Part shown: positions 8,229 through 42,545 of the stretch, in pieces
How the letters are laid out: every line of letters starts with the position of its first letter
Position numbering within the stretch: position 1 is the first letter of the stretch
Origin: Minisyncoccota bacterium
GTDB lineage: Bacteria > Patescibacteriota > Minisyncoccia > Phycocordibacterales > Phycocordibacteraceae
Length of the DNA stretch: 64,000 bases
Assembly: GCA_035547315.1 (NCBI GenBank)
Contig: DASZVH010000004.1
Coordinates: 76,108 to 140,107, forward strand
Reading direction: 5' to 3'
Made by a program: the position numbers and the translations under genes
The notes under the pieces: generated by a model
Databases searched by the model: none
Seen by the model: the letters and a program-made list of their open reading frames with translations, nothing else
What the model was told of the DNA's origin: nothing

Positions 8229-8260
8229 GATGCGCGCTCGCTTCGCGAGCGCGCATCTTG
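8229..8260. terminator. perfect hairpin (aagatgcgcgctcgc-ttcg-cgagcgcgcatctt) between convergent genes
   Basis: 14-bp arms read directly, followed by ...gtttatttat. Confidence 0.5.
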
Positions 8261-8327
8261 CGCACCGTTTATTTATCCCCGGGCGTGCGGCCTGCCTTGA
8301 GGGCGCGCGCCGCGCGCGGCTCGGACG

Positions 8328-8513: not shown

Positions 8514-8605
8514 ATGTATGCGCGTTAGGCTGCTAAGTGCGCTATCCTCGCACGCACGCGGTGAATCACGGGTGAATCTCAGCGGCGTGGTACCATAGCC
8601 GGACT

Positions 8606-10161: not shown

Positions 10162-10785
10162 GGCGCATGCCCTTGGGGAGCGTGCGGAAGGTGATCGAGT
10201 ACCGGAGCGCGCGGGTGGCGGCGACCGCGTGCTGCCACTCCCAGCGGATAGAATCCTGCATGACATACGCGGAGCGCGGCTCCATCTCCACGGAAAATAC
10301 CTCGGCTGCCCGGCGCGAGACGCCGCGCGTTTTCATAGGGCGGAACTTCATCCGCGCCCAGCCGCCAAGCGAGATGCCGACGATATGCTCGAACTTCTCG
10401 TTGTCGCGGTGGAAGCCCAAAGCGGTGCCGGGCGCGTATTCGTTTACCAGCGCTTCGATCACCATGCCTCGCGGCCAGCCGCGCCACTTTTCGATCCGGT
10501 GCGCGAAGCGCGCTAAGAAGCGCGGGAGAGGCGGCCCGGGGATAATCGTGTCGCGTTTGTAATCGTACCCGGCGCCGAAGTCCGCGTGCCGGCGCTTGGC
10601 CTCATACTTGCCTGCGGGGCCCCCGCGCGCATGCTTGAGCCGGTGCGCGCGGATGAACTCGATCAAGAGCTCTTCCTCCTCGGGCGCGATGAACTCGGGC
10701 TTATAAACGAGGCCCGAAGGCAGCCGCGCCTCCGCGTCGAGGAGCTTTCCTTGGGTTCCGCTCCGTTTCATAGGGCTCCCCATTC
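10130..10785 (-). CDS. alkB: alpha-ketoglutarate-dependent dioxygenase AlkB family (DNA/RNA demethylase)
   Basis: FHRDNEKFE (HxD), later H and RYSITFR motifs; start taken at ATG 10785/10773; 32-nt convergent overlap with permease. Confidence 0.7.
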
Positions 10786-16786: not shown

Positions 16787-17983
16787 GTGAACATGTCAGT
16801 CAATCCTCACGAGACCGATCGGCTCCGGCCGACCTATGACCCCGCGCCGAGCCTCGCGCGCGTACTTGCGCCCTTGGCCGCCAAGGCGGGCATACGCTTC
16901 AACGGCGCGGACCCGTGGGACATCCAAGTCTACGACCCGCGCTTCTACCGCCGGGTGCTCGCGGACCGTTCGCTCGGCCTCGGCGAGGCTTATATGGACG
17001 GTATGTGGGGCTCCGGAGCGGCGGATGAGACCATCTGCCGCATCGTGCGCGCCGACCTCGCGAGGGAGCTCACCCGGGCCCCGAGCCTCTCCCTCCTTTG
17101 GCAGGGAGCGGCGGCGCGGCTCACGAGCACGGTGACGAGGGAGCGCGCCCGCGAAGCGATCGCCGCGCATTATGACATCGGCAACGAGCTCTACGAGGCG
17201 ATGCTCGACGCGCGCATGAACTACTCCTGCGCGTATTATCAGGGCCAGCCGCTTCCTCAGACGCTCGGACAGGCCCAGGAGGCCAAGCTCGACCTCGTCT
17301 GCCGGAAGATCGGCCTCCAGCCGGGCCAGCGCGTGCTCGACATCGGCTGCGGCTGGGGCTCCTTCGCGAAGTTCGCGGCGGAGCGCTATGGCGCGCGGGT
17401 GACCGGCGTCACGCTCTCGCGGGAGCAGAAGGCATGGGCGCAGAGGTCCTGCGGCGATCTCCCCGTGACCATCCGCCTGTGCGACTACCGCGACATCGAA
17501 GGGCGCTTCGATCGCATCGTCTCGATCGGTATGTTCGAGCATGTGGGGCCGGAGGAGTACCGCACGTTCTTCGAGCAGGCGGACCGTCTCTTGAAGCCGG
17601 GCGGCATACTCCTCCTGCACTGCATCGTGGGCAATCGCTCGAGACTGGTGGGCGAGGCCTGGATGTCGAAGTACGTCTTCAAGAAAGGCGTACTGCCTTC
17701 GTTCAAGCAGATCGCGGAAGCCTCGGAGGGCTTGTTCGCCCCCTGGGACGCGCACAACTTCGGCCCGGACTACGACCGTACGCTCATGGCCTGGTTTGAG
17801 AACTTCGACCGGGCGTACCGGGAGGGAAGGCTCGACCGCAAGAGGTACGACCAGCGCTTCTACCGCACGTGGAAGTACTACCTGCTCTCCTGCGCAGGGC
17901 TCTTCCGCGCCGGGGGCGCGCAGCTCGGCCAGTTCGTCTTCGCGCGGCCGGGCGAATTGCGCGGGTATCGTACCGCGCGTTGA
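16787..17983 (+). CDS. cfa: cyclopropane-fatty-acyl-phospholipid synthase
   Basis: VLDIGCGWGSF SAM motif, ...IVSIGMFEHVG..., YYLLSCAGLFRAGGAQLGQFVFARPG C-terminal signature of CFA synthases. Confidence 0.85.
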   Translation: MNMSVNPHETDRLRPTYDPAPSLARVLAPLAAKAGIRFNGADPWDIQVYDPRFYRRVLADRSLGLGEAYMDGMWGSGAADETICRIVRADLARELTRAPSLSLLWQGAAARLTSTVTRERAREAIAAHYDIGNELYEAMLDARMNYSCAYYQGQPLPQTLGQAQEAKLDLVCRKIGLQPGQRVLDIGCGWGSFAKFAAERYGARVTGVTLSREQKAWAQRSCGDLPVTIRLCDYRDIEGRFDRIVSIGMFEHVGPEEYRTFFEQADRLLKPGGILLLHCIVGNRSRLVGEAWMSKYVFKKGVLPSFKQIAEASEGLFAPWDAHNFGPDYDRTLMAWFENFDRAYREGRLDRKRYDQRFYRTWKYYLLSCAGLFRAGGAQLGQFVFARPGELRGYRTAR

Positions 17984-23303: not shown

Positions 23304-23374
23304 CGGATGTCTCCTATGCACAATCCGCTCGCACGCTAGCACGGAAGCGGAGAGGGTGTAAAGTGAGTTCGTTC

Positions 23375-23447
23375 CCGCCCCTAGCTCAATGGTTAGAGCA
23401 CCGAGCTTATACCTCGGCGGTTCTTGGTTCGAGTCCAAGGGGGCGGA
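23375..23447 (+). tRNA. tRNA-Ile (anticodon UAU)
   Basis: Hand-folded cloverleaf: acceptor CCGCCCC/GGGGCGG, D GCTC-AATGGTTA-GAGC, anticodon stem CCGAG/CTCGG loop CUUAUAC, T-arm CTTGG-TTCGAGT-CCAAG, discriminator A; CCA not encoded. Confidence 0.7.
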
Positions 23448-23449
23448 CT

Positions 23450-24025
23450 ATGCCGCACTTCATCCTCGCGCAGTCGTATCTCCTCCTCGCGATCCTCGCC
23501 TTGCTCGAGGGGCCTTTCGTCGCCATCGCCTGCGGGGTGGGGGTGGGGCTCGGCTATTTCAATCCGCTCGCGGCCTACGGCATCTTGGTGGCCGGCAGCA
23601 TCATCCCCGACTTCTTCTATTACTCGATCGGGCGCTATGCCCGGAGCATCCCGGCGGTCGAACGCTTCGCGCTGCGCACGCGCCTGATCCGCGAGGTCTA
23701 CCTGCCGCTCAAGGAGCTCTGGCGCGAGAGCCCGCTCTTCATGCTCGCGCTCGGCAAGCTCGCCTACGGCATCACGCCGCCCATCACGATCACCTCCGGG
23801 CTCGCCGAGGTCCCGCTCCCGCGCTTCGCCTACGCCTCCTTCCTGGCGGGGACGATCCTCTACGGCGCGCTCGGCTGTCTCGGCTTCCTCCTCGCGCGCC
23901 TCTACGGCTTCGTCGACCTCAAGACGGGCGCCGCGCCCTATCTGGTCGGCGCCGCGGGCCTCGGCTGCTTCGCGCTGCTCGTGTTCCTCATGCGGGCGGC
24001 GCGGCGGCGCCTCGGCCGCGGCTAG
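23450..24025 (+). CDS. DedA/VTT-domain family membrane protein
   Basis: MPHFILAQSYLLLAILALLEGPFVAIACGVG...GSIIPDFFYYSIGRYA; start ATG only 2 nt after tRNA-Ile. Confidence 0.6.
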   Translation: MPHFILAQSYLLLAILALLEGPFVAIACGVGVGLGYFNPLAAYGILVAGSIIPDFFYYSIGRYARSIPAVERFALRTRLIREVYLPLKELWRESPLFMLALGKLAYGITPPITITSGLAEVPLPRFAYASFLAGTILYGALGCLGFLLARLYGFVDLKTGAAPYLVGAAGLGCFALLVFLMRAARRRLGRG

Positions 24026-24645
24026 GTGCGCGGGTCGCGTTTCGGCCACTCTTCGAGGCGGCCGGCCTTGAGTTCCATCGCGTCGGCGCGCCGCAGATAC
24101 GCGCGCTCCTTGCCGGGCAGGAGCCGGTAGTGGGGGAGCGCGTTCAAGAGATCGTCGAGCTCCCAGAGGTCCTCCGCGCCCGCGAGCCAGTCGAGCTTCA
24201 CGCGATCCAGATTGAGCGGCCGCGAGTAGCTCTCGAGCGTCTTCACGCCGCTCGTGTTGAGGAACCACTCGTGGAAATAGGAGAGCGCGAGCTCGCGCAG
24301 CGTCTTGTAGGCCGGGTCGCGGTAGCGGATGGTCGCGTGATTGGTCTTGGAGATCGCGCCCCAGCGCCCGCGGCGCTTATAGAGCGCGACGACGTGGTCC
24401 ACGTCGCCCGCGCCCTCGACCGCGTAGAGGTCCATGATCAGAGGCGGTTTGCCGTGGCGCTTCAAGGCCGCGGCGGCGATGAGCGCGCCCTCGATGCAAT
24501 GGGCTTTGCGCGCAGAGAGCGCCGCGAGGGCGCTCCGATGCGTCTCTCCCGACTTCTCCCAGTTCATCGGGAGGCGGTCGAGAAAGTCTTGTATCTTGGC
24601 GGGCGTGTCGAGCGTGTCGAGGAGCGCTAAGCCGGGCCGTGCCAT
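24022..24645 (-). CDS. hypothetical protein, possible Cys-His cysteine-peptidase-like fold
   Basis: SARKAHCIEGALIAAAALK...VDHVVALYKRRGRWGAISKTNH; function not recognised. Confidence 0.35.
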   Translation of the reverse strand: MARPGLALLDTLDTPAKIQDFLDRLPMNWEKSGETHRSALAALSARKAHCIEGALIAAAALKRHGKPPLIMDLYAVEGAGDVDHVVALYKRRGRWGAISKTNHATIRYRDPAYKTLRELALSYFHEWFLNTSGVKTLESYSRPLNLDRVKLDWLAGAEDLWELDDLLNALPHYRLLPGKERAYLRRADAMELKAGRLEEWPKRDPRT

Positions 24646-24685: not shown

Positions 24686-27600
24686 CTACCAGAACCGGCT
24701 CTGCAGCAGGCTCTTGGTCAGCGGCCCGACGGCGCCCACCGCGGCGAGGCCGTTGGCCTGCTGGAAGGCGGCGAGCGCGGACTCGGTGATCGAGCCGAAG
24801 TATCCCGTCACGCTCGTCTTGAAGTAGCCGAGCTTGGAGAGGATCTGCTGGAGCGTCATGACGTCCGCGCCGCTCGCGCCCATCGCGAGCCCGCGCGAGA
24901 CGGGCAGGGCGGAGATCTGGTTCACCACGAAGCGCAGCGTGCCGTCCCAGTAGAGGTCTTCCGTGCCGGTGCCCGGGATGAAGCCCTGCGAGTCGAATTT
25001 GTTGAACATGCCGCCCTCCGCGGGATAGACGACGCCGTCGTAGGTGAGCGACTGCACGTAGAGGTTGATGTCGTGGCCGTCCTTGGTGTAGCCGTCGTTA
25101 ATGAACTGGATGTCGACGGTCTGCGCGTCCGGATACGAGCCGGTGTAGGAGACGTCCTTCCACTGGTCTTGCGCGTGGTTCGCGGTCACGGTCTGGATGC
25201 CGCCGACCTGCGCGCCGTTCACGTAGACCTTGAACTGCGGGCTGTAGTCGCCCGAGACGTGGAAGGAGAAGGTATCCTGCGCCGCCGCCTTGATCGTCAC
25301 CGTCGCGCTGCCGCTCGCCTGGCCGCCGGCGCCGGTGCAAGTGAGGGTGTAGGTCTGCGGGCTCGTGATGCCGTTGAAGGTCTGCGAGCCGCTTGTCGCC
25401 TTGGAGCCGTTCCAGTCGCCCGAGGCGATGCAGGAGTTCGCGTCGGTCGAGGACCAGCTGACCTTGCTCGAGCCGCCGGAGGAGACCTGGCTCGGATCGG
25501 CGGCGATGGTGACCGTAGGCGCCGCCGCCTGCGAGACCGTCACGGTCGCCGCGGCGTTCGCCGAGCCGTTCGAGCCGGTGCAGAGCACGGTGTAGGTGGT
25601 GGTCTGTGCCGGCGTCACGCTCGCGCTCCCGGAGACCGCGCCGCCAGTGGAGAAGCCGGTGCCGCTGCAGCTGTCGGCCCCCGTCGAGCTCCAGGTGAGC
25701 GTCGAGGATTGGCCGGCGGCGATCGAGCTCGGGTTGGCCGAGAGGGAGGCGGTGGGCGGCGGGGGCGCACTGCCGAGCGCGAGCGCGGCGATCTCGCTCG
25801 CCGAGAGCGCGCGGTTGTAGAGGCGCACGTCGTCGATCAGGCCATTGGCGTAGCCGTTCTTGACGCTGCCCGAGGCGCGGCCGATGTAGGCGCCGGCGTT
25901 CGTGTCGTAGTAGGCGACCGGCGCGCTCTGCGCCTGCGAGGTCTCGAGCTTGCCATCGAGGTAGAGCGCGACCGTCGAGCCGTCCCAGGCGAGCGTCGCG
26001 TAGTGCCAGGAGCCGTTCGGGATGATGCTCGGGCCGGTGAGGTACTGGTTCGTCCCCTTATTACTGACCTCGCCCATCAGGTGCATCGGGGAGCCGCCCG
26101 CTCCCTCATAGAGGACGAGGCGGACGCCGCCGTTGTCGCTACCGTTGCCGCTGTTGAGCTTGACGAAGATAGGCCAGACGCTGTCTTGGCCGGTGGCGGG
26201 CGTGCTGACGTAGAACCAGCCGCCGATCGTGCCGGCGCTCGTGAGATTGATGAGCGAGTTGCCCGGGAGGGAGACATAGCTCGAGCCTCCAAGCGAGACC
26301 GCCTGAGCGATCTCGCCGGCGCCGAAGGTCGGGCCGTTCACGCCCTGGCCGTTGATGCCGTTGCCCGAAGCGTCCGCGAATGAGCCGTCAAAGGGCCACT
26401 CGGCGACGGGGCCGGAGCCGCCCCCGCCGCTGCCCGAGGAGACGCTCACCGTCGTCTGCGCGCTCGCCTGGCCGCCCGCGCCCGTGCAGGTGACGGAATA
26501 CGTCGTCGTCTGCGAAGGCGTGACGACCGCGCTTCCTGCAGCGGCGCCCCCGGTGGAGAAGCCGGTACCGGTGCAGGAGTCCGCGTTCGTGGAGCCCCAC
26601 GTGAGCGTGGAAGACTGTCCGCTCGTGATCGAGCTCGGGTTGGCCGAGAGGGAGGCGGTGGGGGCGGCGGCGCCGGAGTATTCGACGAGGTAATCCTCGA
26701 CGCTCCAGCCGTCGGGACTGTTGTCGTAGTCGATATCCCACCAGGTGTAGCCGTCGGCCGCGACGGGGCCGCCGATGACCGTGCCGAGCGCGCTCGGCGG
26801 CTGGGTGCCGAGCAGCGTGCCGGAGAGCGAGGGCGTCTGGCGGACGTTCAGCGTCTCCGTGGTCTCGACGCGCTCGCCGATCGTGAACTTGGTGCTGCCC
26901 GAGGAGACGCTCACCGTCGTCTGCGCGCTCGCCTGGCCGCCCGCGCCGGTGCAGTTCACCGTGTAGGTGGTGGTCTGGGCTGGCGTCACGCCTGTGCTCC
27001 CGGAGACCGCGCCGCCGGTCGAGAAGTTCGTACCCGCGCAGCTCGTCGCGTTGGTCGAGCTCCAAGTGAGGACGGCGGTCTGGCCCGCGGTAATCGAGGA
27101 AGGATTCGCCGAGAGGGAGGCGGTGGGGGGCGGAGTGCCGCCGCTGCCGGAAGGGATAATGTGGAACTTGAGCGCGCCGGCCAGATATGATGCTTGCATC
27201 GAGGCGAGATCCGGGAAGTTGGGGTGGAGCGGCAGGAGGGTGTTGTAGGCCTGGAGCGCGCTGGCGTTGCCGGTGGCGTTATACAGCTCAGCCTGCGCCA
27301 TGAGGCCGAGCTGGCCGTAGTCGCAGTACTCGCAATTGGCGAGCGAGTCCGGCGGGTTCTGCGCGCCGACCTTCGACCAGCTCGCAGGCGTAGTGAAGGA
27401 GAGGTTGTAGTTGACTCCCGAGGCCGGCTGCATGCCCTGGCTGCTGTTGAGGAAGCGCCCGGCAGACCAGTTCGCGATCCAGTTGAGGACCGTCTTCGCG
27501 TCGTTATCGCCGAACAGCGCCGCCTGCGCAACGGCGGTCATGAGGTAATCCTGCTGCCAAGGCGCCATCACGACGTTCGGCGGGTTGCTGCCTTCATAAT

Positions 27601-29134
27601 CGCCGGGGAGGTAACCATAGATCGAGCCCTCCTGGCTCTGCAGGGAGGAGAAGTTACTGATCCAGTTCTGGTAGTTGTTGTTGACGATTCCGGTCCAGTA
27701 GGACTTGTCGGCGCTTCCGTCCGGGTTGGCCCACATGGCCTCGTCGATCTGCCGCAGCGGCCAGGCTTGCCCGCGTACCTGATCGAGGAAGTTGATCATG
27801 AGCCCCTTGCCGTCGCCGCGATAGCCGTTCCAGGAAACGAGCTCGGAGAAGGTGGCTTGTGCGTTCAGCTGGTCGAGATCCCAGCGGCTGCCGGTGAGCA
27901 GGTACGGGACGAAGGAGAGATCCGGTTCGTGCGCATTGTCGAGGGTCCAGTCGGTTGCGCCGGTGAACTGCTTCAAGGTCGGGTTGCCGCGCGAGTCGGT
28001 CCAGAGCGTCGGATAATTCACGAGCGAAAGATAGTCGCCCGTGTTCGGGTCGAAGTAGTGCCAGGGCACGGTGCCGGCCGCGTCGGCTTGTGCGAGCGCG
28101 TACTTAGCGGCGGAGGCGTCTTGCGAGAGGAGCCAGTCGGCGTTCTGTGAGGTGGTGGGCCCGACATCAGGGCGGTCGCCGGTCGTGGGCATGTACTTGG
28201 CAATGCCGGCGGAGCTGAGCGGGCTGTAGCTCTCCGGAACGAAGCCCGAGGTATCGATCCCGTCGGCGATGTCGTAGTTGGGGATGGTGCCGGTCTTGAT
28301 GAGGTACGCGACGTCGTGCTGGACGTTCACGCCCGGCGCGCCGTTGGTCCAAAATTCCTCGTGCCACTGCTGATATTGATACTCGGTGAGCGTGCCCGAG
28401 TAGACGGTCGAGCCGTTTTGCGTGACGGTCGCGGTGTAGGAGACAGTGCCGCCGCTGCCCCCGTGCGGATCGTTGGAGGACCACGCGTAGTCGTTATCGA
28501 ACTGCACATCGGTGGAGTAGGTGCCGTCAGCGTACTCGGATATGTCGAAGACAAGGTGCATCGAGCTCGTGACCGGCGCGTCGACGCGCGCCTCGCTCAC
28601 CACCGGCCCTTGCCGCCAGTAGGAAGCCTTGCCCGCGTTGAGCGCGGCGGCCAGGAGCGACGCCGCGTCGAAGTGATAGGTCTTGCCCGAGATGACGAGA
28701 TCTACCGTGAAGCTGTAGCCCGGCATCGAGGAGAGGGAGATCGGGGTGCCGGCCGAGAGCGGGGAGAGCATCACCGGCGCGCTGCCGCTGATCGCCGGCG
28801 CGAGCACGGTCACGACGCCGAAGCGCGCGGAGCCGTCGGGATACTTGGTCTTGATATCCACCTGCGCGGGGACGGTGCTGCCGTTGACGGTCGCGGAGAG
28901 GCCGGAGTTCCCGGCGAGCGCGCCGTCGACGAAGGGCTGGCCGAATTCGACCTCGTGCGCGGGCAAGCTGCCGCCGTTGGGATTCTGGAAAATGAGGCCG
29001 ACGATCTGGCCGGCGCCGGCCTGCGGCACCGAGGGCGGGTAGAGTATCGCGGCATGCGTGATCGCCGGGACGGCGAGAGCAAGCGCTGCGGCGGCGCTAA
29101 TAAAAAAACGAAACGCGAGACGCGCTTGGTACAT
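24686..29134 (-). CDS. giant secreted multidomain surface protein: large N-terminal domain, 4 Ig-like repeats, SH3b-like, LamG/ConA-like, CBM-like, C-terminal peptidoglycan-binding domain
   Basis: Signal peptide MYQARLAFRFFISAAAALALAVPAITHAA (start cat 29132-29134); repeats PPTASLSANPSSI.AGQ...LTWSST...VTPAQTTTY.V.CTGAGGQASAQTTVSV; LamG motif IDDVRLYNRALSASEIAAL; C-terminal LQQILSKLGYF...YFGSITESALAAFQQANGL. Confidence 0.7.
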   Translation of the reverse strand: MYQARLAFRFFISAAAALALAVPAITHAAILYPPSVPQAGAGQIVGLIFQNPNGGSLPAHEVEFGQPFVDGALAGNSGLSATVNGSTVPAQVDIKTKYPDGSARFGVVTVLAPAISGSAPVMLSPLSAGTPISLSSMPGYSFTVDLVISGKTYHFDAASLLAAALNAGKASYWRQGPVVSEARVDAPVTSSMHLVFDISEYADGTYSTDVQFDNDYAWSSNDPHGGSGGTVSYTATVTQNGSTVYSGTLTEYQYQQWHEEFWTNGAPGVNVQHDVAYLIKTGTIPNYDIADGIDTSGFVPESYSPLSSAGIAKYMPTTGDRPDVGPTTSQNADWLLSQDASAAKYALAQADAAGTVPWHYFDPNTGDYLSLVNYPTLWTDSRGNPTLKQFTGATDWTLDNAHEPDLSFVPYLLTGSRWDLDQLNAQATFSELVSWNGYRGDGKGLMINFLDQVRGQAWPLRQIDEAMWANPDGSADKSYWTGIVNNNYQNWISNFSSLQSQEGSIYGYLPGDYEGSNPPNVVMAPWQQDYLMTAVAQAALFGDNDAKTVLNWIANWSAGRFLNSSQGMQPASGVNYNLSFTTPASWSKVGAQNPPDSLANCEYCDYGQLGLMAQAELYNATGNASALQAYNTLLPLHPNFPDLASMQASYLAGALKFHIIPSGSGGTPPPTASLSANPSSITAGQTAVLTWSSTNATSCAGTNFSTGGAVSGSTGVTPAQTTTYTVNCTGAGGQASAQTTVSVSSGSTKFTIGERVETTETLNVRQTPSLSGTLLGTQPPSALGTVIGGPVAADGYTWWDIDYDNSPDGWSVEDYLVEYSGAAAPTASLSANPSSITSGQSSTLTWGSTNADSCTGTGFSTGGAAAGSAVVTPSQTTTYSVTCTGAGGQASAQTTVSVSSGSGGGGSGPVAEWPFDGSFADASGNGINGQGVNGPTFGAGEIAQAVSLGGSSYVSLPGNSLINLTSAGTIGGWFYVSTPATGQDSVWPIFVKLNSGNGSDNGGVRLVLYEGAGGSPMHLMGEVSNKGTNQYLTGPSIIPNGSWHYATLAWDGSTVALYLDGKLETSQAQSAPVAYYDTNAGAYIGRASGSVKNGYANGLIDDVRLYNRALSASEIAALALGSAPPPPTASLSANPSSIAAGQSSTLTWSSTGADSCSGTGFSTGGAVSGSASVTPAQTTTYTVLCTGSNGSANAAATVTVSQAAAPTVTIAADPSQVSSGGSSKVSWSSTDANSCIASGDWNGSKATSGSQTFNGITSPQTYTLTCTGAGGQASGSATVTIKAAAQDTFSFHVSGDYSPQFKVYVNGAQVGGIQTVTANHAQDQWKDVSYTGSYPDAQTVDIQFINDGYTKDGHDINLYVQSLTYDGVVYPAEGGMFNKFDSQGFIPGTGTEDLYWDGTLRFVVNQISALPVSRGLAMGASGADVMTLQQILSKLGYFKTSVTGYFGSITESALAAFQQANGLAAVGAVGPLTKSLLQSRFW
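25289..27130 (-). repeat. four tandemly arranged roughly 80-codon Ig-like coding repeats within the giant protein gene (interrupted by SH3b and LamG domains)
   Basis: Repeated peptide PTASLSANPSSI..GQ..LTW.ST.A.SC.GT.FSTGGA..GS..VTP.QTTTY.V.CTG at ORF residues about 695-772, 849-928, 1151-1226, 1231-1308. Confidence 0.6.
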
Positions 29135-29208
29135 ACGCGGGCAAATAGGGGTGGGTAATAAGCACGCCCTCATCATACCGGGCGGAAAGTCCCGCAACAG
29201 GGCGTTTT

Positions 29209-31386
29209 TCACTCGAGGTGGATAGTCGCGGCGGCGCCCCGCGCGAGACGCGCGAGGAGCGGGTAGCTGGCAAGCTCCGGATCCTTGGCAAGGAGGCGCT
29301 TGGCCTCGCTCCGGGCCGCCTCGACGAGGCGTAAATTACCCAATGATTCCATAGCGATGTCGGATACTCCCCACTGATTTCCGCCCATGAGCTCGCCCGC
29401 TCCCCGCAGCGCCAGATCCCGCTTGGCGAGCTCAAAGCCGTTCTTGGCCGTGATGAGCGCGGTGAGGCGGGCCCGCACGCTCGCGGCCTTCGATTCGGCG
29501 AGGAGGAAACAGTACGCTTGGCGGTCGGAGCGGATCACGCGGCCGCGCAGCTGGTGCAGCTGCGCGAGGCCGAAGCGTTCGGCACCCTCAATCAGAATCA
29601 CGGTCGCGTTCGGCACGTTGACGCCCACTTCGACGACCGAGGTCGCGACCAGGATCTGCACCTCGCCCGCCGCGAACATGCGCATGGACTCCTCTTTCTC
29701 GGCTGGCGTCATCTTGGAGTGGAGGATACCGATGTCGAACTCGGGGAAGACCTCCTGGGCGAGCCGCGCGGCCTCCGCTTTTACCGAACGCATCTCACGC
29801 TTCTGGGGCTCGCCCGCGCCGCCGGCTTCTGCCGGGTCGATGCGCGGGCAGATAACGTATGCCTGGCGGCCCGCGGCGAGCTCCGCGCGCATGCGCTCGT
29901 ATGCGGCCGCGCGCGCCGCGGGCGCGACGACCTCGGTGATCACCGGCCGCCGGCCTGCCGGCAGCTCGTCGAGCACGGAGAGATCCAGATCGCCGTAGAG
30001 CGTGAGCGCGAGCGTGCGCGGGATCGGCGTCGCCGTCATCGAAAGCAGATGCGGCGTCAACAAGGTTCGTCCTTGTTTCAAGGTCGAACCTTGTTTGGTG
30101 ACGAGCTTCTGCCGGTGCGCGGTGCCGAAGCGATGCTGCTCTTCGATCACGGCGAGCGCGAGCCGCTTGAAAGAGAGCGTCTCCTGGATGAGCGCGTGCG
30201 TGCCGATGACGATCGGGATGAGGCCGTCGGCCACCCGCTTGCGGAAGGTCGCGCGCGAGAGCGCGGCGGACTCTTCGTAGGAGACGCGCGAGGGGAACAC
30301 GCGCGTCTCGCTGCCCGTGATGAGGCCGATCGGGATCGGGTGCGCGCGGAAATAGGAGACGAAGGTGGAGAAGTGCTGCTTGGCGAGCACCTCGGTCGGG
30401 CACAGGTAGGCGACCTGCGCGCCCGCCGCCGCGGCCAGATACGCCGCCGCCGCCGCGACCGCCGTCTTGCCGCTCCCGACGTCGCCCTCCAGGAGGCGCA
30501 GCATCGGCACGGGGCGCGCGAGGTCGCGCGCGATCGCCGCGATAGCGCGCCGCTGCGCGCGCGTCGGCGGGAAGGGAAAACTCGCGACGAACGCTTCGAG
30601 GAGGCCGGCGCCAGGCGCGAGCTCGAGCGCGCGCGTCGCGCGCACGGTGCGGCGGCGCTCCTCGAGCGCGAGCGTGAGCGCGAGGATCTGCTCGAAGGCG
30701 AAGCGCTTGCGGGCCGCGGCGGCATCTCCGGCCCGCCGGGGCCGATGTATATATATGAGCGCGTTCTCGAACGCCGGGAGCCGGTAGCGGCGCAGGAGCT
30801 CGGGGGGCAGCGGGTCGGCGAGCGCGCCGGCGAGCGCCTTGAGCGTTTTCCCGATCGCGTGGAAGAACCAGAGCGAGCTGATGCCCTCGCTTTCGGGGTA
30901 GACGGGGAAGACGGCGGGAGCGGGCGCCGGGCCGGGAGCCGGAGAGAAGAGCGAGGCATGCGCCTCCTCGGGGTCGATCGGCGCGCGATCCACCTCGGGG
31001 TTCGCGAGATAGGCGCCGCTCCCGGATCCCGCCACCCTCCCGCTCACCTTAACCGCCATGCCTTCGCGCAGCGATTTGGCGATATACGGCTGGGAGAACC
31101 ACATGAGCTTGATGCGTCCGCTCGCGTCCTCGAGCCAGGCCTCGGCCAGCGGGCGGCGGCTCTTCCAGCTCTTGCGTGCCTCGGGCTTGCGGATGACGCC
31201 GTAGAGCGTCGCGCTCGCGCCCGGCGCGACGCCCGCGATCGTCGCCGAGGGGCCGGCGGCCTCGTAGCGGGAGGGGAAGTGGTAGAGCAGGTCGTGCAGG
31301 GTCGCGATCTTGAGGCGCTTCAACGCGCGCCGCTGCTCCGGCTTGAGCTTGGGGAAGAGCTTCTCGAGCGGGTCGGCGGGAGCCAC
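29209..31386 (-). CDS. recG: ATP-dependent DNA helicase RecG
   Basis: Helicase motifs GDVGSGKT, DEQHRFG, LLSMTATPIPRTLALT, ...VEVGVNVPNATVILIEGAERFGLAQLHQLRGRV; start probably GTG/TTG near 31386-31392 (no ATG); upstream part of track ORF is Arg-rich non-coding extension. Confidence 0.85.
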   Translation of the reverse strand: MAPADPLEKLFPKLKPEQRRALKRLKIATLHDLLYHFPSRYEAAGPSATIAGVAPGASATLYGVIRKPEARKSWKSRRPLAEAWLEDASGRIKLMWFSQPYIAKSLREGMAVKVSGRVAGSGSGAYLANPEVDRAPIDPEEAHASLFSPAPGPAPAPAVFPVYPESEGISSLWFFHAIGKTLKALAGALADPLPPELLRRYRLPAFENALIYIHRPRRAGDAAAARKRFAFEQILALTLALEERRRTVRATRALELAPGAGLLEAFVASFPFPPTRAQRRAIAAIARDLARPVPMLRLLEGDVGSGKTAVAAAAAYLAAAAGAQVAYLCPTEVLAKQHFSTFVSYFRAHPIPIGLITGSETRVFPSRVSYEESAALSRATFRKRVADGLIPIVIGTHALIQETLSFKRLALAVIEEQHRFGTAHRQKLVTKQGSTLKQGRTLLTPHLLSMTATPIPRTLALTLYGDLDLSVLDELPAGRRPVITEVVAPAARAAAYERMRAELAAGRQAYVICPRIDPAEAGGAGEPQKREMRSVKAEAARLAQEVFPEFDIGILHSKMTPAEKEESMRMFAAGEVQILVATSVVEVGVNVPNATVILIEGAERFGLAQLHQLRGRVIRSDRQAYCFLLAESKAASVRARLTALITAKNGFELAKRDLALRGAGELMGGNQWGVSDIAMESLGNLRLVEAARSEAKRLLAKDPELASYPLLARLARGAAATIHLE
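30059..30096. repeat. tandem palindromic units CAAGGTTCGTCCTTG-ttt-CAAGGTCGAACCTTG inside recG coding sequence (in-frame)
   Basis: Read directly; related to element in lepA. Confidence 0.55.
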
Positions 31387-35886: not shown

Positions 35887-36162
35887 GTGGCCATGATCGT
35901 GCACGGCCATCAGTTGCGTCCGCCGTATGTCGAAGGCGAAACCATGGAGGACTATGGAAAGAAACGCGGCGAATCTCGCGCGGACTGGATCAACCGGGCC
36001 GGCACGCGCCGCCGCAAGGCGGATTTGCGGCTGTGCGACGAGCTCGAGAGCCAGGACCTTTCACTACTGACCGGTCGCCAGAGCGCCGAAGCGAGGCCGC
36101 ATCACCTGCGGCGCCCGCCGAGGACACACATCGATCTCACGAAAGGGAAGCGGCGCGCGTAA
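35887..36162 (+). CDS. hypothetical small protein (uncertain)
   Basis: GTG/ATG start options; no family recognised; included because intergenic gap otherwise 330 bp. Confidence 0.25.
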   Translation: MAMIVHGHQLRPPYVEGETMEDYGKKRGESRADWINRAGTRRRKADLRLCDELESQDLSLLTGRQSAEARPHHLRRPPRTHIDLTKGKRRA

Positions 36163-36198
36163 GCGCGCCGTTAGCCATTGTGGTATAAAAGCGGGAAC

Positions 36199-36285
36199 GG
36201 AGGCGTCGCATAGTGGTCTAGTGCACCGCCTTGGAAAGGCGGCAGGCTCGAAAGGGCCTCGAGAGTTCGAATCTCTCCGCCTCCG
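36199..36285 (+). tRNA. tRNA-Ser (anticodon GGA)
   Basis: Hand-folded: acceptor GGAGGCG/CGCCTCC, anticodon stem CCGCC/GGCGG loop UUGGAAA, long variable arm (18 nt), T-arm GAGAG-TTCGAAT-CTCTC, discriminator G. Confidence 0.8.
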
Positions 36286-36351
36286 CCCTTAGAAAAAAGT
36301 ATCGGACAGACCCGAGTACCCAGAAATCGGGTCCCGAGCTAAAATGGGCAT

Positions 36352-36915
36352 ATGCAGACAAATGTCTTAATTTTCCACGGCACGGAAGGATATCCGGAGG
36401 AAAACTGGTTTCCTTGGATGAAAACCGAGATGGAGCAACGAGACTGCAAAGTGTTTGTGCCACAGTTCCCATCGCCGCCAGAGGTCGCTGCGAAAATCGG
36501 CGAGTGGTTTGACGTCCTGAAGGGGTACGAACAATATCTCGACGAGAACACGATCTTGATAGGTCATAGTTTGGGCGGAAAGTTTGCGCTGCGTCTTTTG
36601 GAAAAGTTGGAATGCCCAGTAAAAGCGGTTGCGTTCGTGGGTACGCCGATCGGAGTTCCGCCTATCGCAAATAACGAGCGCGACAATGCATTTACTGGGA
36701 ATGATTTCGATTGGGATGCAATTCGGAAGAAGGCAAAACATTTCATGGTGTACCAGTCAGATACGGATCCATATGTTGGGCTTGATAATGGAAAGGAACT
36801 CGCGAGACAGCTCGGCGTCGAGCTTTCGTTCGTCCCGAACGCAGGGCACTTCAACGCAAAAGCTGGATATACGAAATTTGATGCGTTGCGCGATGACATC
36901 TTGAAAATCCTCTAA
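36352..36915 (+). CDS. alpha/beta-fold serine hydrolase (YdeN/RBBP9-like)
   Basis: VLIFHGTEGYPEENWFPW..., nucleophile elbow GHSLGG, ...DTDPYV..., GHF. Confidence 0.7.
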   Translation: MQTNVLIFHGTEGYPEENWFPWMKTEMEQRDCKVFVPQFPSPPEVAAKIGEWFDVLKGYEQYLDENTILIGHSLGGKFALRLLEKLECPVKAVAFVGTPIGVPPIANNERDNAFTGNDFDWDAIRKKAKHFMVYQSDTDPYVGLDNGKELARQLGVELSFVPNAGHFNAKAGYTKFDALRDDILKIL

Positions 36916-36924
36916 CGACTTGCC

Positions 36925-37563
36925 ATGAGCTCCTCGGACGACATTGAACTTTCGGAAGCCCAATTCAACGAGTTTTACGAGAACTTCGGCTCCAATTCCT
37001 TTCAACTGCAAGGACGTGTGCTTGAAGACTTAGGGACGAAGCAGCTCGACATATATTTCAAGTCGATAGGATTCGCGACAACCGTAATCGGTGTCGTTGG
37101 TTTGATAGCTGGATTCGGGTTTACAGCCCTCGACCATGTAGAAAGCATGGCGCTATTTTTCTTTGGCGAAGTTCTATTGCTTGGAGGACTTTTTTACGGA
37201 CTCTTCTGGACTCAACAAAAATATCAGGCCGAATTTAAGTCGCTTGAGGAGGAGCGAAAGAAGCTCGCAGCTTTTTACGAGAAGAGGAATGGTAAATTTA
37301 TGGAGCTTTACAACAAATGGATTTCCGAACGGAGAATAAGCCGCACAGCTTTCGTTGAGTTGAACGAGATAGACAAAGGCTCGATAGAGCTTTTTAGAAC
37401 CGAAAAAGACAGACCGATCCCGTCAATCTATTCGCAGGCAATGTATATTCTCATGATCGCGGGTACGGTCGTCCTCCTCTCCTCCTTCTTCATTTGCCTA
37501 AATACAAAAAACAACCCGCGACCCGGAGGCCTCGATAATTTTTATTGGGGGCGGCTAAAATAG
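36925..37563 (+). CDS. hypothetical membrane protein (low-GC islet cargo)
   Basis: Four hydrophobic segments; lower-GC codon usage than flanks. Confidence 0.45.
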   Translation: MSSSDDIELSEAQFNEFYENFGSNSFQLQGRVLEDLGTKQLDIYFKSIGFATTVIGVVGLIAGFGFTALDHVESMALFFFGEVLLLGGLFYGLFWTQQKYQAEFKSLEEERKKLAAFYEKRNGKFMELYNKWISERRISRTAFVELNEIDKGSIELFRTEKDRPIPSIYSQAMYILMIAGTVVLLSSFFICLNTKNNPRPGGLDNFYWGRLK

Positions 37564-37733
37564 CCTTACAAGGATTGACCTCAAAAGTCTGAATCCCTCA
37601 CCCTCCGCAGATAGAAACTTCGGACTCGGACAGAGCCGCGCCGCGAAGCGGCGCGGCAGAGTGGGCGGGCAGAAAATCCCGCCGCGAAGCGGCGAATTCA
37701 GACGGGGCGGCGGCGGAAAAATGCGGGGACTTG

Positions 37734-37770
37734 GCACGAACCGTAGGGTTCGTTCCGATTTTTTGTACAA
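37734..37770 (+). terminator. rho-independent terminator (acgaacc-gtag-ggttcgt + UUCCGAUUUUUUG) ending a structured non-coding stretch
   Basis: Read directly. Confidence 0.45.
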
Positions 37771-37900
37771 ACACGTCTGGCGGAGCTTCAACGTAAAACT
37801 CTTATTGAATCTACCGGATCAGGTGCTTGAGCCCAAAAGTCCGAACTGCTGACGGCCCGCACATGTTAGAATCGGGGCATTAGATAACCCGAGACTGCCT

Positions 37901-38191
37901 ATGTACGGAGACCGGCCGAGAGTGACGCCCCACGAGTTCCAACACTACGTGCGCCCGGAGCTCTTGAACAAGGGATTCACCGAGCACCAGATCAACCAGG
38001 TCGAGACGGCGTTCCACGAATCCTTGGCGGGGAACCCGCACCTGCCCTCGTGGAAGCCGGGCGTAGACGCCGAGAATCTTGCGCAGACGATGCAATACAT
38101 GCGCGCGCACCCGGGCGCGACGATGGTCGGCCCGCACCACTGGGACGCCGTCAACGAGGTGATGGAGAAATATATCCATGAGCGCCACTAG
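37901..38191 (+). CDS. hypothetical protein
   Basis: ORF with high GC3; overlaps cax start by 14 nt; no family recognised. Confidence 0.35.
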   Translation: MYGDRPRVTPHEFQHYVRPELLNKGFTEHQINQVETAFHESLAGNPHLPSWKPGVDAENLAQTMQYMRAHPGATMVGPHHWDAVNEVMEKYIHERH

Positions 38192-39251: not shown

Positions 39252-39712
39252 GGGCGCTGGCGTTCGCCGCGCTCGCGCTCCTGTGTCTCATAGGCCTCGC
39301 TGTCGCGTATCGGACAGGAGCGGGGAGCCGCGCGAGCTTCGGTGGCGTGTCCTTGACGCTCGAGTATGCGACAACCACGGCCGAGCGCGAGCTCGGCCTC
39401 GGCGGCCGAGCCGATATTCCGAGCAACTACGGCATGCTCTTCGTCTTCCCGGACGACGAGCGCTGGGGCATCTGGATGAAAAGCATGCGGGTGCCGCTCG
39501 ACCTCTTTTGGCTCGACGACGACCGGCGCGTGGTCTGGATAGAGCGGGAAGTGGCGACCGACACCTATCCGGATGTCTTTTATCCGCCCGTGCCGGCGCG
39601 CTATGTCCTTGAGACGGCCGCGGGCTTCGCCGCGACGCATCAGGTCGCGAGCGGTACGCCGCTCTTCCTGCCTGCTACGCCAAACGCCGCCTCTCATCGA
39701 GGCGGCGTTTGA
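39248..39712 (+). CDS. DUF192 domain protein (COG1430)
   Basis: ATGA overlap with cax; signal-like N-terminus; ERELGLGGRADIPSNYGMLFVFPDDERWGIWMKSMRVPLDLFWLD matches DUF192 core; N-terminal part of track ORF 38258.. is spurious. Confidence 0.65.
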   Translation: MRALAFAALALLCLIGLAVAYRTGAGSRASFGGVSLTLEYATTTAERELGLGGRADIPSNYGMLFVFPDDERWGIWMKSMRVPLDLFWLDDDRRVVWIEREVATDTYPDVFYPPVPARYVLETAAGFAATHQVASGTPLFLPATPNAASHRGGV

Positions 39713-39718
39713 TTTTTT
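39681..39718 (+). terminator. rho-independent terminator overlapping DUF192 stop codon
   Basis: aaacgccgcctc-tcatc-gaggcggcgttt hairpin followed by gattttttgg. Confidence 0.5.
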
Positions 39719-39720
39719 GG

Positions 39721-40080
39721 GGACCCGGCCGATAAGCCGAATTCTGTCTTGCTTCGCCGTAGCCCGGCGAGGCGAGGCGATCATTTATCTGTCTCGATTG
39801 TCGCCAACCGGATCAAGCGGCACCCCCGCCGCACCTCGCAGGTGGGCGGGTACGGCCTTGCACGCGGGTAAGGATTTAGCCGTTTCATCCCGTACCTTGC
39901 GGTACGGCTCGCCCCTCGGGATTACCCTCGGGGCGCTTGCACGCTTTCGCCGCAAGCGTCTCTGTTCGCACCTCGCGCCTCGCGGCGTGCGGGGATTACC
40001 CGCTACCTTGCTGCTCCCGAGGGAGCGCGTGTTCGGACTTTCCTCCCCGCCGAAAGCGGAGCGATCGCCTGGCCGGGTCC
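39721..40080 (-). ncRNA. rnpB: RNase P RNA (bacterial type A-like)
   Basis: Minus strand: P1 GGACCCGGCC...GGCCGGGUCC closing helix; P4 strands GGGAGGAAAGUCCGAACAC and ACAGAAUUCGGCUUAUCGG present at expected 5'/3' positions; about 360 nt; track ORFs here are Arg-rich non-coding. Confidence 0.75.
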
Positions 40081-40178
40081 GCAGGTATTATACCACGGAT
40101 CCGCGGGGAAAACCCCGCCTTGCGCCCGCTCGCGCGGGGTATACTGCATCCATTAATCTCTTAGCCGAAGAATCAATC

Positions 40179-42545
40179 ATGCCTCCGCAAGCAACCGCCA
40201 AACGTCTTTCGCTCGAGACCGTCGTGGTCTGGGCTCTCCTCGCCGTCGTCATCGTCGCCGCTGTCGCGGTGACGCCATGGAACGCGGTGCCCTCCGCCGC
40301 GACCAAGGCGTTCGTCATCGGCGCCGGCGCCATTATCGCGCTCGCGCTCTACATTCTCGCCCGCCTCGGGCGCGGCAGCGTCGTGCTCCCGCCCGCGCTC
40401 CTGCTCGGCGCGCTCTGGCTCCCCGCGCTCGCGTACCTGCTCTCGGCCGCCTTCTCGGGCGCCGGCTTCTCCGCCGCGGCCTTCGGCGCGGCGCTCGACA
40501 CCGACACCTTCGGCTTCATCCTCGCGGCGACGGTGCTTGGCTCGCTCTTCGCGCTTTCGCCGCGCCGCGCCGAGGAGTTCAAACGGCTCTTCTCCCTCTT
40601 CGGCTGGGCGCTCGGCATCATGGCCGCGCTGCAGATCCTTATCGTCATCGTGGGGCAGTTCGCTCCCGGGACCATCGCGCCCTCCTTCTCGCTCCTGGGG
40701 AGTCTCGGCGAGCTCGGCAGCGTCGCGGGGCTCGGCCTCGTGCTCTCGCTCGTCGCCTTGCGCACGCTCGCGCTCTCTCCGCGCCGCCGCGCGCAGCTCT
40801 ACGTGCTCGGCGCGCTCCTCCTGGTCGCGCTCGCCTTTGCCAATCTGACCCTCCCGTGGGTGCTCGTTGCGCTCGCCGCGCTCGCGCTCTTCGTCGAGGC
40901 GGTGATGCGCCGCGCGCCCGCAGGCGGCAGCGAAGAGCTCGAGGGCGCCGCGCTGATCGAGGAGGATGACGCCGGTCCCGCCGGCGGCGAGCGCCCCCTG
41001 ATCGCGCCATTGGTCGTGCTCGCGGTCGCGCTCTTTTTCCTCATCGGCGGCACGCTCGGCAACGGGCTCACCACGGCTCTGCATATCTCTTCGCTCAATG
41101 TCCGGCCCTCCTGGCAGTCGACGCTTGCGACCGCCGGCAGCGTCTATCGCTCCTCGCCCGTCTTCGGCTCGGGGCCCGACACCTTCGGCGCGCACTGGCT
41201 CCTCGCGCGCAACGCGGCGCTCAATAGCACCGTCTTCGCCAACATCGACTTCACCGCCGGCATCGGCAGCGTCCCGACCTCCTTCGTGACCACCGGGCTC
41301 GCGGGCGTGCTCGCCTGGGTGCTCTTCTTGGGCGCGTTCCTCTTCTTCGGCGGCCGGGCGCTCCTCCTGCGCAGCCCCGAGGAGCCGCTGGTGCGCTACG
41401 CGCTGCTCGCCTCGTTCGTCGGCTTCGGCTATCTGGCGCTGCTTGCGATCCTCTCGGTGCCGGGGCCTTTCGTCTATGCGCTGCTCTTCGTCTTCGCGGG
41501 CATCTTCATCTCCGCCGCGCGCTACGCCAAGGGCGCCGCGCAGTGGGGCGTCGTCTTCGGCCGGTCGCCGCGCGTCGGCTTCGTGATCGTCTTCTGCCTC
41601 ACGCTGCTCCTCTTGGCCGCGGTCGCCGCCGCCTATGCGCTCGTCGAGCGCTACGTCGCGGTCGCCGACCTCGCGCGCGCCGAACAGGCGCTCGCCGCGG
41701 GCGATACCGCCGGCGCCGCAGCCGCCGCGCAGAGCTCGCTCTCCTTCGCTCCCTCGGCCGCCGCCTATGAGGCGCAGGCGCTCGCCGCCCTCGGGCAGAT
41801 GAACGCGATCGCCGGCGACGCCACGCTCTCGCAGGCCGCCGCCCAGCAGCAGTTCCAGGCCGCGCTCTCGGCGGGCATCAACGCGGCGCTCACCGCGACG
41901 CAGCTCGCGCCCGCCGACTACACGGCGTGGATCACGCTCGGCAACCTCTACGCGGCGGTGGTCCCGCTCGGCGTCGCGGACTCCTACGACAGCGCCAAGG
42001 CCGCCTACGCCAAGGCCGGAGCGCTCAACCCGACCTCGCCTTCGATCCCGTATCTCCTCGCGCAGCTCGAGATAGCGAACAAAGACCTTCCCGCGGCCGA
42101 GACCGCGCTTAAGCAGGCGATCACGCTCTCGCCGAGCGACACGCAGGCGATCCTCCTGCTCTCGCAGCTCGAGGTGGCTTCGGGCGACCTGCAAAGCGCC
42201 CTCGCCGACGCGAAAGCCGCCGCTTACTTCACCCCGAACGACCCGAACGTCCTCTACCAGCTGGGCGTGCTCGAGGCCGCCTCCGGCGACCTGCAAAGCG
42301 CGGTCTCGGCGCTCTCGGCCGCGGTCGCCGCCAATCCGCAGTTCGCCAACGCGCGCTACCTGCTCGCCGCCGCCTACGCCAAGAGGGCGGATTATACCGA
42401 CGCGCTCGCGCAGCTTTCGGCCATCGCCGCGCTCTCCGACGACAACAAGCAGGCGGTCGCCGCCGACATCGACGCGCTCTCGGCAGGGGAGAACCCGTTC
42501 CCGGCGAACCTCCTCGCGGCGTCCTCGACCAGCCTCTCGCAGTAG
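40179..42545 (+). CDS. O-antigen ligase/Wzy-like polytopic membrane protein with C-terminal TPR repeats
   Basis: Start ATG 40179 (MPPQATAKRLSLETVVVWALL); >10 TM segments then Ala-rich TPR-like repeats (...AKAAYAKAGALNPTSPSIPYLLAQLE...); upstream 600 nt of track ORF covers RNase P RNA and is rejected. Confidence 0.55.
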   Translation: MPPQATAKRLSLETVVVWALLAVVIVAAVAVTPWNAVPSAATKAFVIGAGAIIALALYILARLGRGSVVLPPALLLGALWLPALAYLLSAAFSGAGFSAAAFGAALDTDTFGFILAATVLGSLFALSPRRAEEFKRLFSLFGWALGIMAALQILIVIVGQFAPGTIAPSFSLLGSLGELGSVAGLGLVLSLVALRTLALSPRRRAQLYVLGALLLVALAFANLTLPWVLVALAALALFVEAVMRRAPAGGSEELEGAALIEEDDAGPAGGERPLIAPLVVLAVALFFLIGGTLGNGLTTALHISSLNVRPSWQSTLATAGSVYRSSPVFGSGPDTFGAHWLLARNAALNSTVFANIDFTAGIGSVPTSFVTTGLAGVLAWVLFLGAFLFFGGRALLLRSPEEPLVRYALLASFVGFGYLALLAILSVPGPFVYALLFVFAGIFISAARYAKGAAQWGVVFGRSPRVGFVIVFCLTLLLLAAVAAAYALVERYVAVADLARAEQALAAGDTAGAAAAAQSSLSFAPSAAAYEAQALAALGQMNAIAGDATLSQAAAQQQFQAALSAGINAALTATQLAPADYTAWITLGNLYAAVVPLGVADSYDSAKAAYAKAGALNPTSPSIPYLLAQLEIANKDLPAAETALKQAITLSPSDTQAILLLSQLEVASGDLQSALADAKAAAYFTPNDPNVLYQLGVLEAASGDLQSAVSALSAAVAANPQFANARYLLAAAYAKRADYTDALAQLSAIAALSDDNKQAVAADIDALSAGENPFPANLLAASSTSLSQ

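Follow-up and report, generated by a model that had tools for sequence, protein, structure and literature searches.

The window analyzed here is a 64,000-nucleotide stretch of contig DASZVH010000004.1, and our subject is the gene occupying positions 24686 to 29134 on its minus strand, a single uninterrupted frame of 4449 nt that encodes a protein of 1482 amino acids plus the stop codon. The mechanically delimited open reading frame (ORF) is longer (24686 to 29212, minus strand, GTG start); translation from the ATG at 29134 yields the 1482-aa product, which is 100% identical over 1482/1482 residues to the NCBI protein HVW82570.1 (P0172 in our homolog set), and this ATG is also the public start. 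HVW82570.1 is encoded on a contig of 143 kb. Its public name, [quoted passage not shown], refers to its LamG domain only. An initial annotation of the window had placed a multidomain protein of about 1480 residues at these coordinates; protein and coordinates both held, and the strand is here corrected to minus. The features of the gene are listed below, with the residues of the 1482-aa product and the basis of each assignment.

24686..29134, minus strand: whole gene, 1482 aa, identical to HVW82570.1
29054..29134, minus strand: putative Sec-type signal peptide, residues 1-27, read from the sequence (basic n-region, hydrophobic core, end at THA before an A)
28316..29053, minus strand: N-terminal all-beta region of the head, residues 28-273; AlphaFold2 (AF2) model with predicted local distance difference test score (pLDDT) >90, hhalign alignment to P0352, PF19501 in 39/65 relatives
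27149..28315, minus strand: conserved loop (YMPTTGDRPDVGP) and helical (alpha/alpha)6-type toroid of the head, presumed catalytic, residues 274-662; AF2, Foldseek, conservation
26900..27133, minus strand: Ig-like repeat 1 with Cys pair, residues 668-745; repeat comparison
26675..26893, minus strand: bacterial SH3-like domain, residues 748-820; Pfam SH3_3 (PF08239) at 761-816, E 1.4e-3, 19.2 bits, below the gathering cut-off of 27, near-full profile (2-53/54)
26435..26668, minus strand: Ig-like repeat 2, residues 823-900; best stretch of the phrog_2155 match at 817-898
25775..26413, minus strand: LamG/ConA-like jellyroll, residues 908-1120; Pfam Laminin_G_3 (PF13385) at 949-1116, E 1.3e-23, 84.3 bits versus a cut-off of 27.6, full-length profile match
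25532..25762, minus strand: Ig-like repeat 3, residues 1125-1201; repeat comparison
25289..25525, minus strand: Ig-like repeat 4, the most divergent (45% to repeat 1), residues 1204-1282
24920..25282, minus strand: CBM60-type carbohydrate-binding module, residues 1285-1405; Pfam CBM60 (PF16841) at 1295-1373, E 2.4e-13, 50.8 bits versus a gathering cut-off of 28.2
24689..24892, minus strand: PG_binding_1 peptidoglycan-binding domain at the C terminus, residues 1415-1482; Pfam PG_binding_1 (PF01471) at 1421-1476, E 3.3e-15, 56.5 bits versus a cut-off of 23, full profile

The domain order is thus head-Ig1-SH3b-Ig2-LamG-Ig3-Ig4-CBM60-PG_binding_1. Residues 1 to 27 (MYQARLAFRFFISAAAALALAVPAITHA, followed by AILYP) look like a Sec signal peptide, as had been read earlier. 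The four Ig-like repeats, each of about 78 residues, have 27 invariant positions in common, two of them cysteines; their joint profile matched titin Ig domains weakly (E 1.2e-3) and the phage virion structural protein family phrog_2155 strongly (E 1.2e-22). Repeats and Cys pair had been anticipated as four copies in a row, and it is this consecutive order that did not stand, the copies being interleaved with the SH3b and LamG domains. LamG, the carbohydrate-binding-like module and the C-terminal PG_binding_1 domain, all expected from the initial annotation, were recovered above their cut-offs, and the bacterial SH3 domain with a match that stays below it; precomputed PF08239 matches are present in some homologs of the C-terminal region. 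Calcium-dependent binding of xylan/galactan-type ligands, taken as a mark of CBM60 modules, is a specificity that does not transfer with the Pfam name. The PG_binding_1 domain also matches the peptidoglycan-binding parts of SleB and of phage endolysins.

A repeat-bearing gene with a singleton architecture, on a contig derived from a metagenome-assembled genome (MAG), invites the explanation that it is an assembly or annotation artefact, i.e., a chimeric fusion or a product of collapsed or expanded repeats, and a fusion by misassembly had indeed been named beforehand as a possible weakness. Apart from the continuity of the frame over 4449 nt, the repeat copies are only 71 to 78% identical at the DNA level and are therefore too divergent for collapse. 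Head and tail resemble the neighboring genes in G+C content and in G+C at third codon positions (GC3, 0.87 to 0.94), the domain boundaries are clean, and the same repeat occurs elsewhere with other heads and PG_binding_1 tails, several of them in proteins with Parcubacteria or Kaiserbacteria names. We consider an artefact highly improbable; misassembly was rejected on the divergence of the repeats, and a recent compositional island at this gene on its neighbor-like GC3.

Residues 28 to 665, hereafter the head, are the large N-terminal region that had been left unplaced, and they had no Pfam, NCBIfam or PHROGs match in sequence searches. Structure prediction of these residues with AF2 gave a globular model (pLDDT 93.3; predicted template modeling score, 0.94) in which model residues 1 to 246 are all-beta and residues ~300 to 620 are helical; a low-complexity or non-globular head, the other weakness foreseen, was rejected on this pLDDT. 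The helical part modeled alone (residues 272 to 665) reached a pLDDT of 91.9, and the 11 to 13 helices of the toroid models define an (alpha/alpha)6-type fold. In a Foldseek search of the PDB with the whole head, the first matches were to the exo-rhamnogalacturonan lyase PcRGLX of polysaccharide lyase (PL) family 26 (5xqo/5xq3; E 4.5e-6 to 3e-5, probability 1.0), followed by other (alpha/alpha)6 enzymes, all at E>0.02. With the toroid alone, the top 50 matches were almost all (alpha/alpha)6 enzymes (probability 0.7 to 0.99, template modeling [TM] score ~0.4), among them PL27, the glycoside hydrolase (GH) families GH88, GH48, GH105 and GH76, and AGE/cellobiose epimerases (probability 0.9 to 0.99); a close relative of the toroid was not found among solved structures.

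Independent evidence for the relation to PL26 comes from sequence comparison. PF19501 (PcRGLX_1st, "PcRGLX-like N-terminal RIFT barrel") was matched at E<=0.1 by 39 of the 65 family members scanned, with a best E value of 3.7e-6 and two members (P0103 and P0105) scoring above the gathering cut-off. Head residues 57 to 114, which are RIFT-barrel-like, align with the PF19501-bearing protein P0352 (hhalign E 2e-4, probability 44%). P0352, in which PF19501 occurs together with Ig-like repeats, was considered as a bridge to the head family and discarded, only this 58-residue RIFT-barrel segment being in common. PcRGLX of Penicillium chrysogenum, whose three-domain layout is reflected in the Pfam naming, resembles the head in that beta domains precede an (alpha/alpha) toroid; of all solved structures it gives the best match to the head as a whole, and at sequence level it has the RIFT-barrel motif in common with the 39 members. 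It is longer (~880 aa versus ~640 aa), and plant rhamnogalacturonan is an unlikely substrate of the head, unlike of PcRGLX, given the bacterial exopolysaccharide (EPS) loci and phage tail contexts described below. By sequence, the head has no HMMER similarity (E<=10) to the PcRGLX chains 5xq3/5xqo among all PDB chains. We therefore regard the head family as a distant relative of PL26 and treat the head as a separate, uncharacterized family of the six-hairpin superfamily, not as a PL26 member, with an N-terminal beta region common with PcRGLX-like proteins. Of the earlier suggestion that this region might be polysaccharide-lyase or heparinase-like, the lyase half survives in the PL26 match and in the PcRGLX_1st domains of relatives. 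The heparinase half was rejected: Pfam Heparinase II/III gave no match at E<=1, no heparinase was among the top 50 structural matches, and the domain order is beta region followed by toroid.

Conservation within the family points to a candidate active site. At all 80 alignment columns conserved in at least 85% of the family, the 1482-aa protein keeps the family residue. Eleven positions are invariant between it and 11 phage homologs (G319, H402, P404, Y411, G415, R439, R454, W458, W526, W552 and W586), and H359, R461, D/E421 and D/N529 are nearly so. In the model, the conserved positions appear to lie at the starts of successive helices, either within the first turns or in the preceding loop, the places where (alpha/alpha)6 enzymes build their funnel. 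His402, Tyr411, Arg439 and Arg454 are accordingly named as candidate catalytic residues, judging from the alignment. Toroid lyases (PL5/8/15/17-type) act by His/Tyr beta-elimination with neutralization of the carboxylate, and inverting glycosidases need two carboxylates. With His and Tyr both invariant, several invariant Arg and only one toroid position that is acidic throughout (D/E421), the head would thus fit His/Tyr beta-elimination on a uronic-acid glycan better than a two-carboxylate glycosidase, and we lean, with modest confidence, toward a lyase on a uronic-acid polymer. The head might instead belong to the glycoside hydrolases or to some other kind of (alpha/alpha)6 enzyme, for example the epimerases: searched by itself, the toroid matches GH88, GH48, GH105, GH76 and AGE/cellobiose 2-epimerases about as well as lyases, and D/E421 and D/N529 are both conserved acids. 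We find this alternative possible but doubtful, because the best match of the whole head is a lyase and because the invariant His, Tyr and Arg residues with one strictly acidic toroid position resemble what is generally known of toroid lyases; against an epimerase in particular, such enzymes of this fold are cytosolic, whereas the 1482-aa protein starts with a putative signal peptide and other members of the head family occur with RTX repeats or near phage tail genes.

The family is very large. As for orthologs, which the initial annotation had proposed to look for, 139 head homologs were found, the best of them about 50% identical, and none with the full architecture. A profile of 93 head sequences retrieved 4978 cluster representatives (clustering at 50% identity) at E<=1e-3, the weakest of which may match just the short C-terminal tail of the profile, and 2010 at E<=1e-30. 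In many relatives the head is joined to RTX repeats, Calx-beta or CBM60, which suggests that these proteins work outside the cell. One of them, P0121 (2023 aa, on a 9-kb Logan contig), has two stretches matching the head profile in addition to RTX repeats and may represent the enzyme with two heads in tandem.

Phages encode relatives of the head as well. A 430-aa protein of an uncultured Caudovirales phage (BFVD) is a much closer match to the head than any of the solved structures (E 1.3e-16, TM score 0.71, root mean square deviation 3.6 A, 23% identity), and a single-pattern scan found head relatives encoded on 19 IMG/VR contigs. The phage proteins match from about model residue 200-270 onward, i.e., the toroid is kept and the N-terminal beta region is replaced. 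On three of the five phage contigs examined, the family member adjoins tail-fiber, tailspike or baseplate genes. In the first (L097), a tail-fiber gene (phrog_4201, E 3e-132) lies just upstream; in the second (L098), the order is DNA-ejection protein, collagen-like tail fiber, tailspike and family member; in the third (L104), the member sits between two tail-fiber genes, with a baseplate wedge gene farther upstream. Adjacency to phage tail genes, taken as a mark of tail depolymerases, was thus found for homologs but not for the 1482-aa gene itself. Phage tailspike and tail-fiber depolymerases resemble the proposed head in being glycan-cutting heads on the surface of a particle or cell, used to pass the capsule of another cell. 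They differ in fold, the characterized classical tailspike depolymerases being mostly trimeric right-handed beta-helices as opposed to an (alpha/alpha)6-type toroid, and in carrier, which is the virion for tailspikes and would be the cell wall, via PG_binding_1, for the 1482-aa protein.

The named cellular relatives of the head are Alphaproteobacteria (Acetobacteraceae, Roseomonas/Falsiroseomonas, Acidiphilium, Reyranella and Rhodospirillales). One of the two closest matches, P0001, lies on a Candidatus Competibacteraceae contig (RadA 88 to 89% identical); the other, P0002, lies on a contig of the Candidate Phyla Radiation (CPR), where GAPDH and transketolase are 69 to 78% identical to those of a locus in our set of related recG loci. 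In a rough neighbor-joining tree, which is not robust, the query head groups with P0001 and its allies, and P0002 falls in a neighboring group; a single CPR clade for the head was not supported by this tree. Eight loci, proteobacterial or unassigned, were inspected, and five of them are part of a polysaccharide-biosynthesis cluster or border on one. In two of the five, those of P0117 (Falsiroseomonas bella) and P0111, the family member sits between a glycosyltransferase family 4 (GT4) gene, a Wzy_C/DUF5935 gene and a gene for an epimerase or flippase, and genes for a histidine kinase, a sigma54 regulator and a large TPR protein are located upstream of it. The remaining three belong to P0078 (among GT4s, acetyltransferases and an FkbM methyltransferase), P0066 (beside GT4s, an asparagine synthase and a beta-helix protein) and P0005 (beside a GT2, Wzx, two DegT aminotransferases, a dehydratase/epimerase, a hexapeptide acetyltransferase and a GFO_IDH oxidoreductase). 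The loci of P0115, P0019 and P0003 are outside such clusters. In the P0117/P0111 loci (L083/L084; Falsiroseomonas bella, JGI genome; ~8001 to 10220), the order histidine kinase, sigma54 response regulator, ~940-aa TPR protein, Wzy_C/DUF5935, GT4 and head-family member is conserved, an arrangement that we take to resemble a PrsK/PrsR/PrsT exosortase/PEP-CTERM-type EPS locus; if so, the head family may be an unrecognized standard component there.

Such contexts raise the alternative that the enzyme remodels the own envelope polysaccharide of the CPR cell, in chain-length control, turnover or release, like the EPS-locus glycanases and lyases of Proteobacteria. ExoK and ExsH, the succinoglycan depolymerases of Sinorhizobium, and the alginate lyase AlgL are encoded in an EPS locus or secreted with RTX repeats, each for the cell's own polymer, and head-family members are likewise found in polysaccharide clusters or with RTX repeats; the folds are unrelated, ExoK and ExsH being GH16 beta-jellyrolls and AlgL a PL5 enzyme. 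In addition, PG_binding_1 and SH3b are typical of enzymes that act on the producer's own wall, as their endolysin- and autolysin-type matches illustrate. At the locus itself, however, no polysaccharide-biosynthesis gene was found among the 30 ORFs scanned across the window, a result that favors a foreign target over an own glycan, and as neighbors the 1482-aa gene has recG, a tRNA gene, a gene for a VTT-domain membrane protein and an unannotated ORF of 207 aa. Three extra modules of carbohydrate-binding type on a long stalk would suit outward reach, and the use of the head domain by phages indicates attack on foreign surfaces too. An own-glycan role is in our view unlikely, yet it is a serious rival, since the relatives in Proteobacteria apparently target polymers made by their own cells.

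The part of the protein that would carry the head is more widespread than the head. The same Cys-pair repeat and PG_binding_1 chassis carries GH5, GH16, beta-helix, DUF4038 and GDSL heads in other proteins, and several homologs of the Ig-like repeat bear Parcubacteria or Kaiserbacteria names; in the 1482-aa protein it carries the PcRGLX-like head, and no other protein in the database has this full architecture. A second PG_binding_1 protein is encoded in the window at 2924 to 3871 on the minus strand (domain at residues 130 to 186, E 2.2e-14, flanks unannotated); it corresponds to the PG_binding_1 protein noted earlier at 2924-3787 and may likewise be associated with the wall of this cell. The window also encodes MurJ, i.e., the organism makes peptidoglycan precursors. 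Genes for related extracellular proteins with peptidoglycan-binding and Ig-like domains rank among those that host-attached Paceibacteria express most highly, and such proteins have been proposed as attachment factors (PMC10936435). That proposal, together with the adhesin-type character of Ig-like repeats, LamG, CBM60 and SH3b, would allow the 1482-aa protein to be a non-catalytic adhesin whose head only binds a glycan for host attachment. We judge this quite unlikely, as all 80 strongly conserved positions are kept, including a His/Tyr/Arg core common with the phage homologs, a pattern expected of an active site and not of a binding surface that adapts to its ligands. Binding and cutting are, moreover, compatible, and phage tailspikes do both.

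We therefore propose, with moderate confidence, that the 1482-aa protein is a secreted, modular, wall-tethered depolymerase of a bacterial surface polysaccharide, possibly a lyase. The putative Sec signal peptide would export the protein, and the C-terminal PG_binding_1 domain would attach it, without a covalent bond, to the peptidoglycan of the cell that makes it. A long stalk would be formed by the four Ig-like spacers and the interspersed SH3b, LamG and CBM60 modules, the latter being three putative sugar or wall contacts. The head, at the distal N terminus, would project its active site outward, toward a neighboring (host) cell or environmental slime, and would there depolymerize a capsule, EPS or O-antigen-like polymer. 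The suggestion of the initial annotation, an enzyme or adhesin anchored to peptidoglycan and directed at an external glycan, is thus supported by the fold, the PL26 match and the EPS-cluster and phage-tail contexts, whereas catalysis, substrate and anchoring, like the lyase chemistry and a target on another cell, are what we infer from them.

Several observations weigh against this proposal. The head family has no Pfam or NCBIfam model, solved structure or characterized member, and comparison of the head with PDB chains gave only noise in single-sequence phmmer searches (E>=0.14) and nothing in a family-profile hmmsearch. The TM scores between head and PL26 are low (0.32/0.26), PL26 is not among the top 50 Foldseek matches of the toroid alone, so that the PL26 link rests mainly on the N-terminal beta domains, and the 1482-aa protein itself has no PF19501 match at E<=1. 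Two of the five phage contigs depart from the tail pattern. In one (L100), the order is baseplate hub/lysozyme, DNA-ejection protein and family member, and the baseplate gene is thus not adjacent. In the other (L103; IMG/VR 3300048894_000068), the member at 7494 to 9197, a modest match (28% identity, E 2e-21), directly follows the portal and scaffold genes, a slot usually expected to hold the major capsid gene. The proteobacterial members appear to have a polymer of their own cell as substrate, and the CPR enzyme may also act on a glycan of its own envelope. Finally, the full architecture is a singleton cluster in the database, and conservation of the neighborhood, which had been suggested as a check, did not extend to the head: the domain was in none of the 80 related Kaiserbacteria/Paceibacterota recG loci, where only scattered PG_binding_1 and Ig-like matches occurred.

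The surroundings of the gene identify its bearer. The window contains a tmRNA, RNase P and six tRNAs and encodes, besides MurJ, FtsH, RecG, LepA, TypA and a class-I aminoacyl-tRNA synthetase (tRNA-synt_1; ORF labeled leuS). RecG, which ends 74 nt upstream of the 1482-aa gene, is 60 to 69% identical to RecG of MAGs named Candidatus Kaiserbacteria, Paceibacterota or Patescibacteria. The source is a CPR bacterium (Candidatus Paceibacterota/Kaiserbacteria-like) of unusually high G+C content (0.654), consistent with the organism name at NCBI, and it is probably symbiotic.

Further features of the neighborhood were recorded alongside. The 207-aa ORF (24022 to 24645, minus strand) starts 40 nt downstream of the stop codon of the 1482-aa gene on the same strand and may be co-transcribed with it; it has no Pfam match, and a Cys...His...Asp pattern in its sequence (AHCIEGAL ... 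DHVVALY) recalls papain/transglutaminase-like folds. The ORF was dismissed as a conserved partner, having been found in none of the related loci fetched. Next to it, a VTT/DedA-like membrane protein ORF (23363 to 24025, plus strand; PF09335, E 3.9e-6, below the cut-off) overlaps with its 5′ end a tRNA at 23375 to 23447 (plus strand), and its true start is probably downstream (MPHFILAQ...). Similarly, an ORF for a 990-aa TPR protein (39573 to 42545, plus strand) overlaps the RNase P RNA on the opposite strand (39717 to 40080, minus strand); its TPR matches are confined to residues ~777 to 957, and the real start probably lies after 40080. The region from 36001 to 38000, with a local G+C content of 0.52 versus ~0.65, adjoins a tRNA (36199 to 36285) and short ORFs (36352 to 36915 and 36925 to 37563) and may be a small foreign island at the tRNA. 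A cyclopropane-fatty-acyl-phospholipid synthase-type methyltransferase is encoded at 16787 to 17983 (plus strand; CMAS, E 2e-84); lipid-modifying enzymes are unexpected in CPR lineages, which are thought to scavenge lipids. Genes for an HlyD-type membrane-fusion protein (49855 to 51396, plus strand), an MFS transporter (52032 to 53531, plus strand) and an ABC-2 transporter pair (8606 to 10161, plus strand) represent export machinery in a cell presumed to have no outer membrane.

The accessory domains of the 1482-aa protein are unremarkable. The novelty lies in a very large family of extracellular enzymes without a model, a solved structure or a known substrate, in its joint occurrence in EPS loci, phage tails and CPR surface proteins, and in the first recognizable case of a CPR bacterium carrying its head on a stalk anchored to peptidoglycan. 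This 640-aa module is present, without annotation, in at least 2000 clusters at 50% identity (E<=1e-30). Three independent contexts, namely EPS/O-antigen-type clusters, phage tail modules and a CPR surface protein, converge on surface-polysaccharide depolymerization, and this convergence gives a testable function and a short list of candidate residues for a family of potential use, new capsule and EPS depolymerases being sought for the removal of biofilms and capsules. More tentatively, the head may represent a new CAZyme family, most likely a new polysaccharide-lyase family distant from PL26, that acts on bacterial capsule, EPS or O-antigen polymers and has been horizontally exchanged among Proteobacteria, phages and CPR bacteria; here it might serve as a "cellular tailspike" that bores through the capsule or slime of a proteobacterial host, for which the lineages of its closest relatives suggest an Acetobacteraceae- or Competibacteraceae-like bacterium. 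If this were true, the episymbiont would reach the host surface or feed on the released sugars. A wall-tethered depolymerase is a plausible tool by which ultrasmall episymbionts could pass the capsule of their hosts and attach, and the proteobacterial and phage affinities of its nearest relatives could hint at the kind of host.

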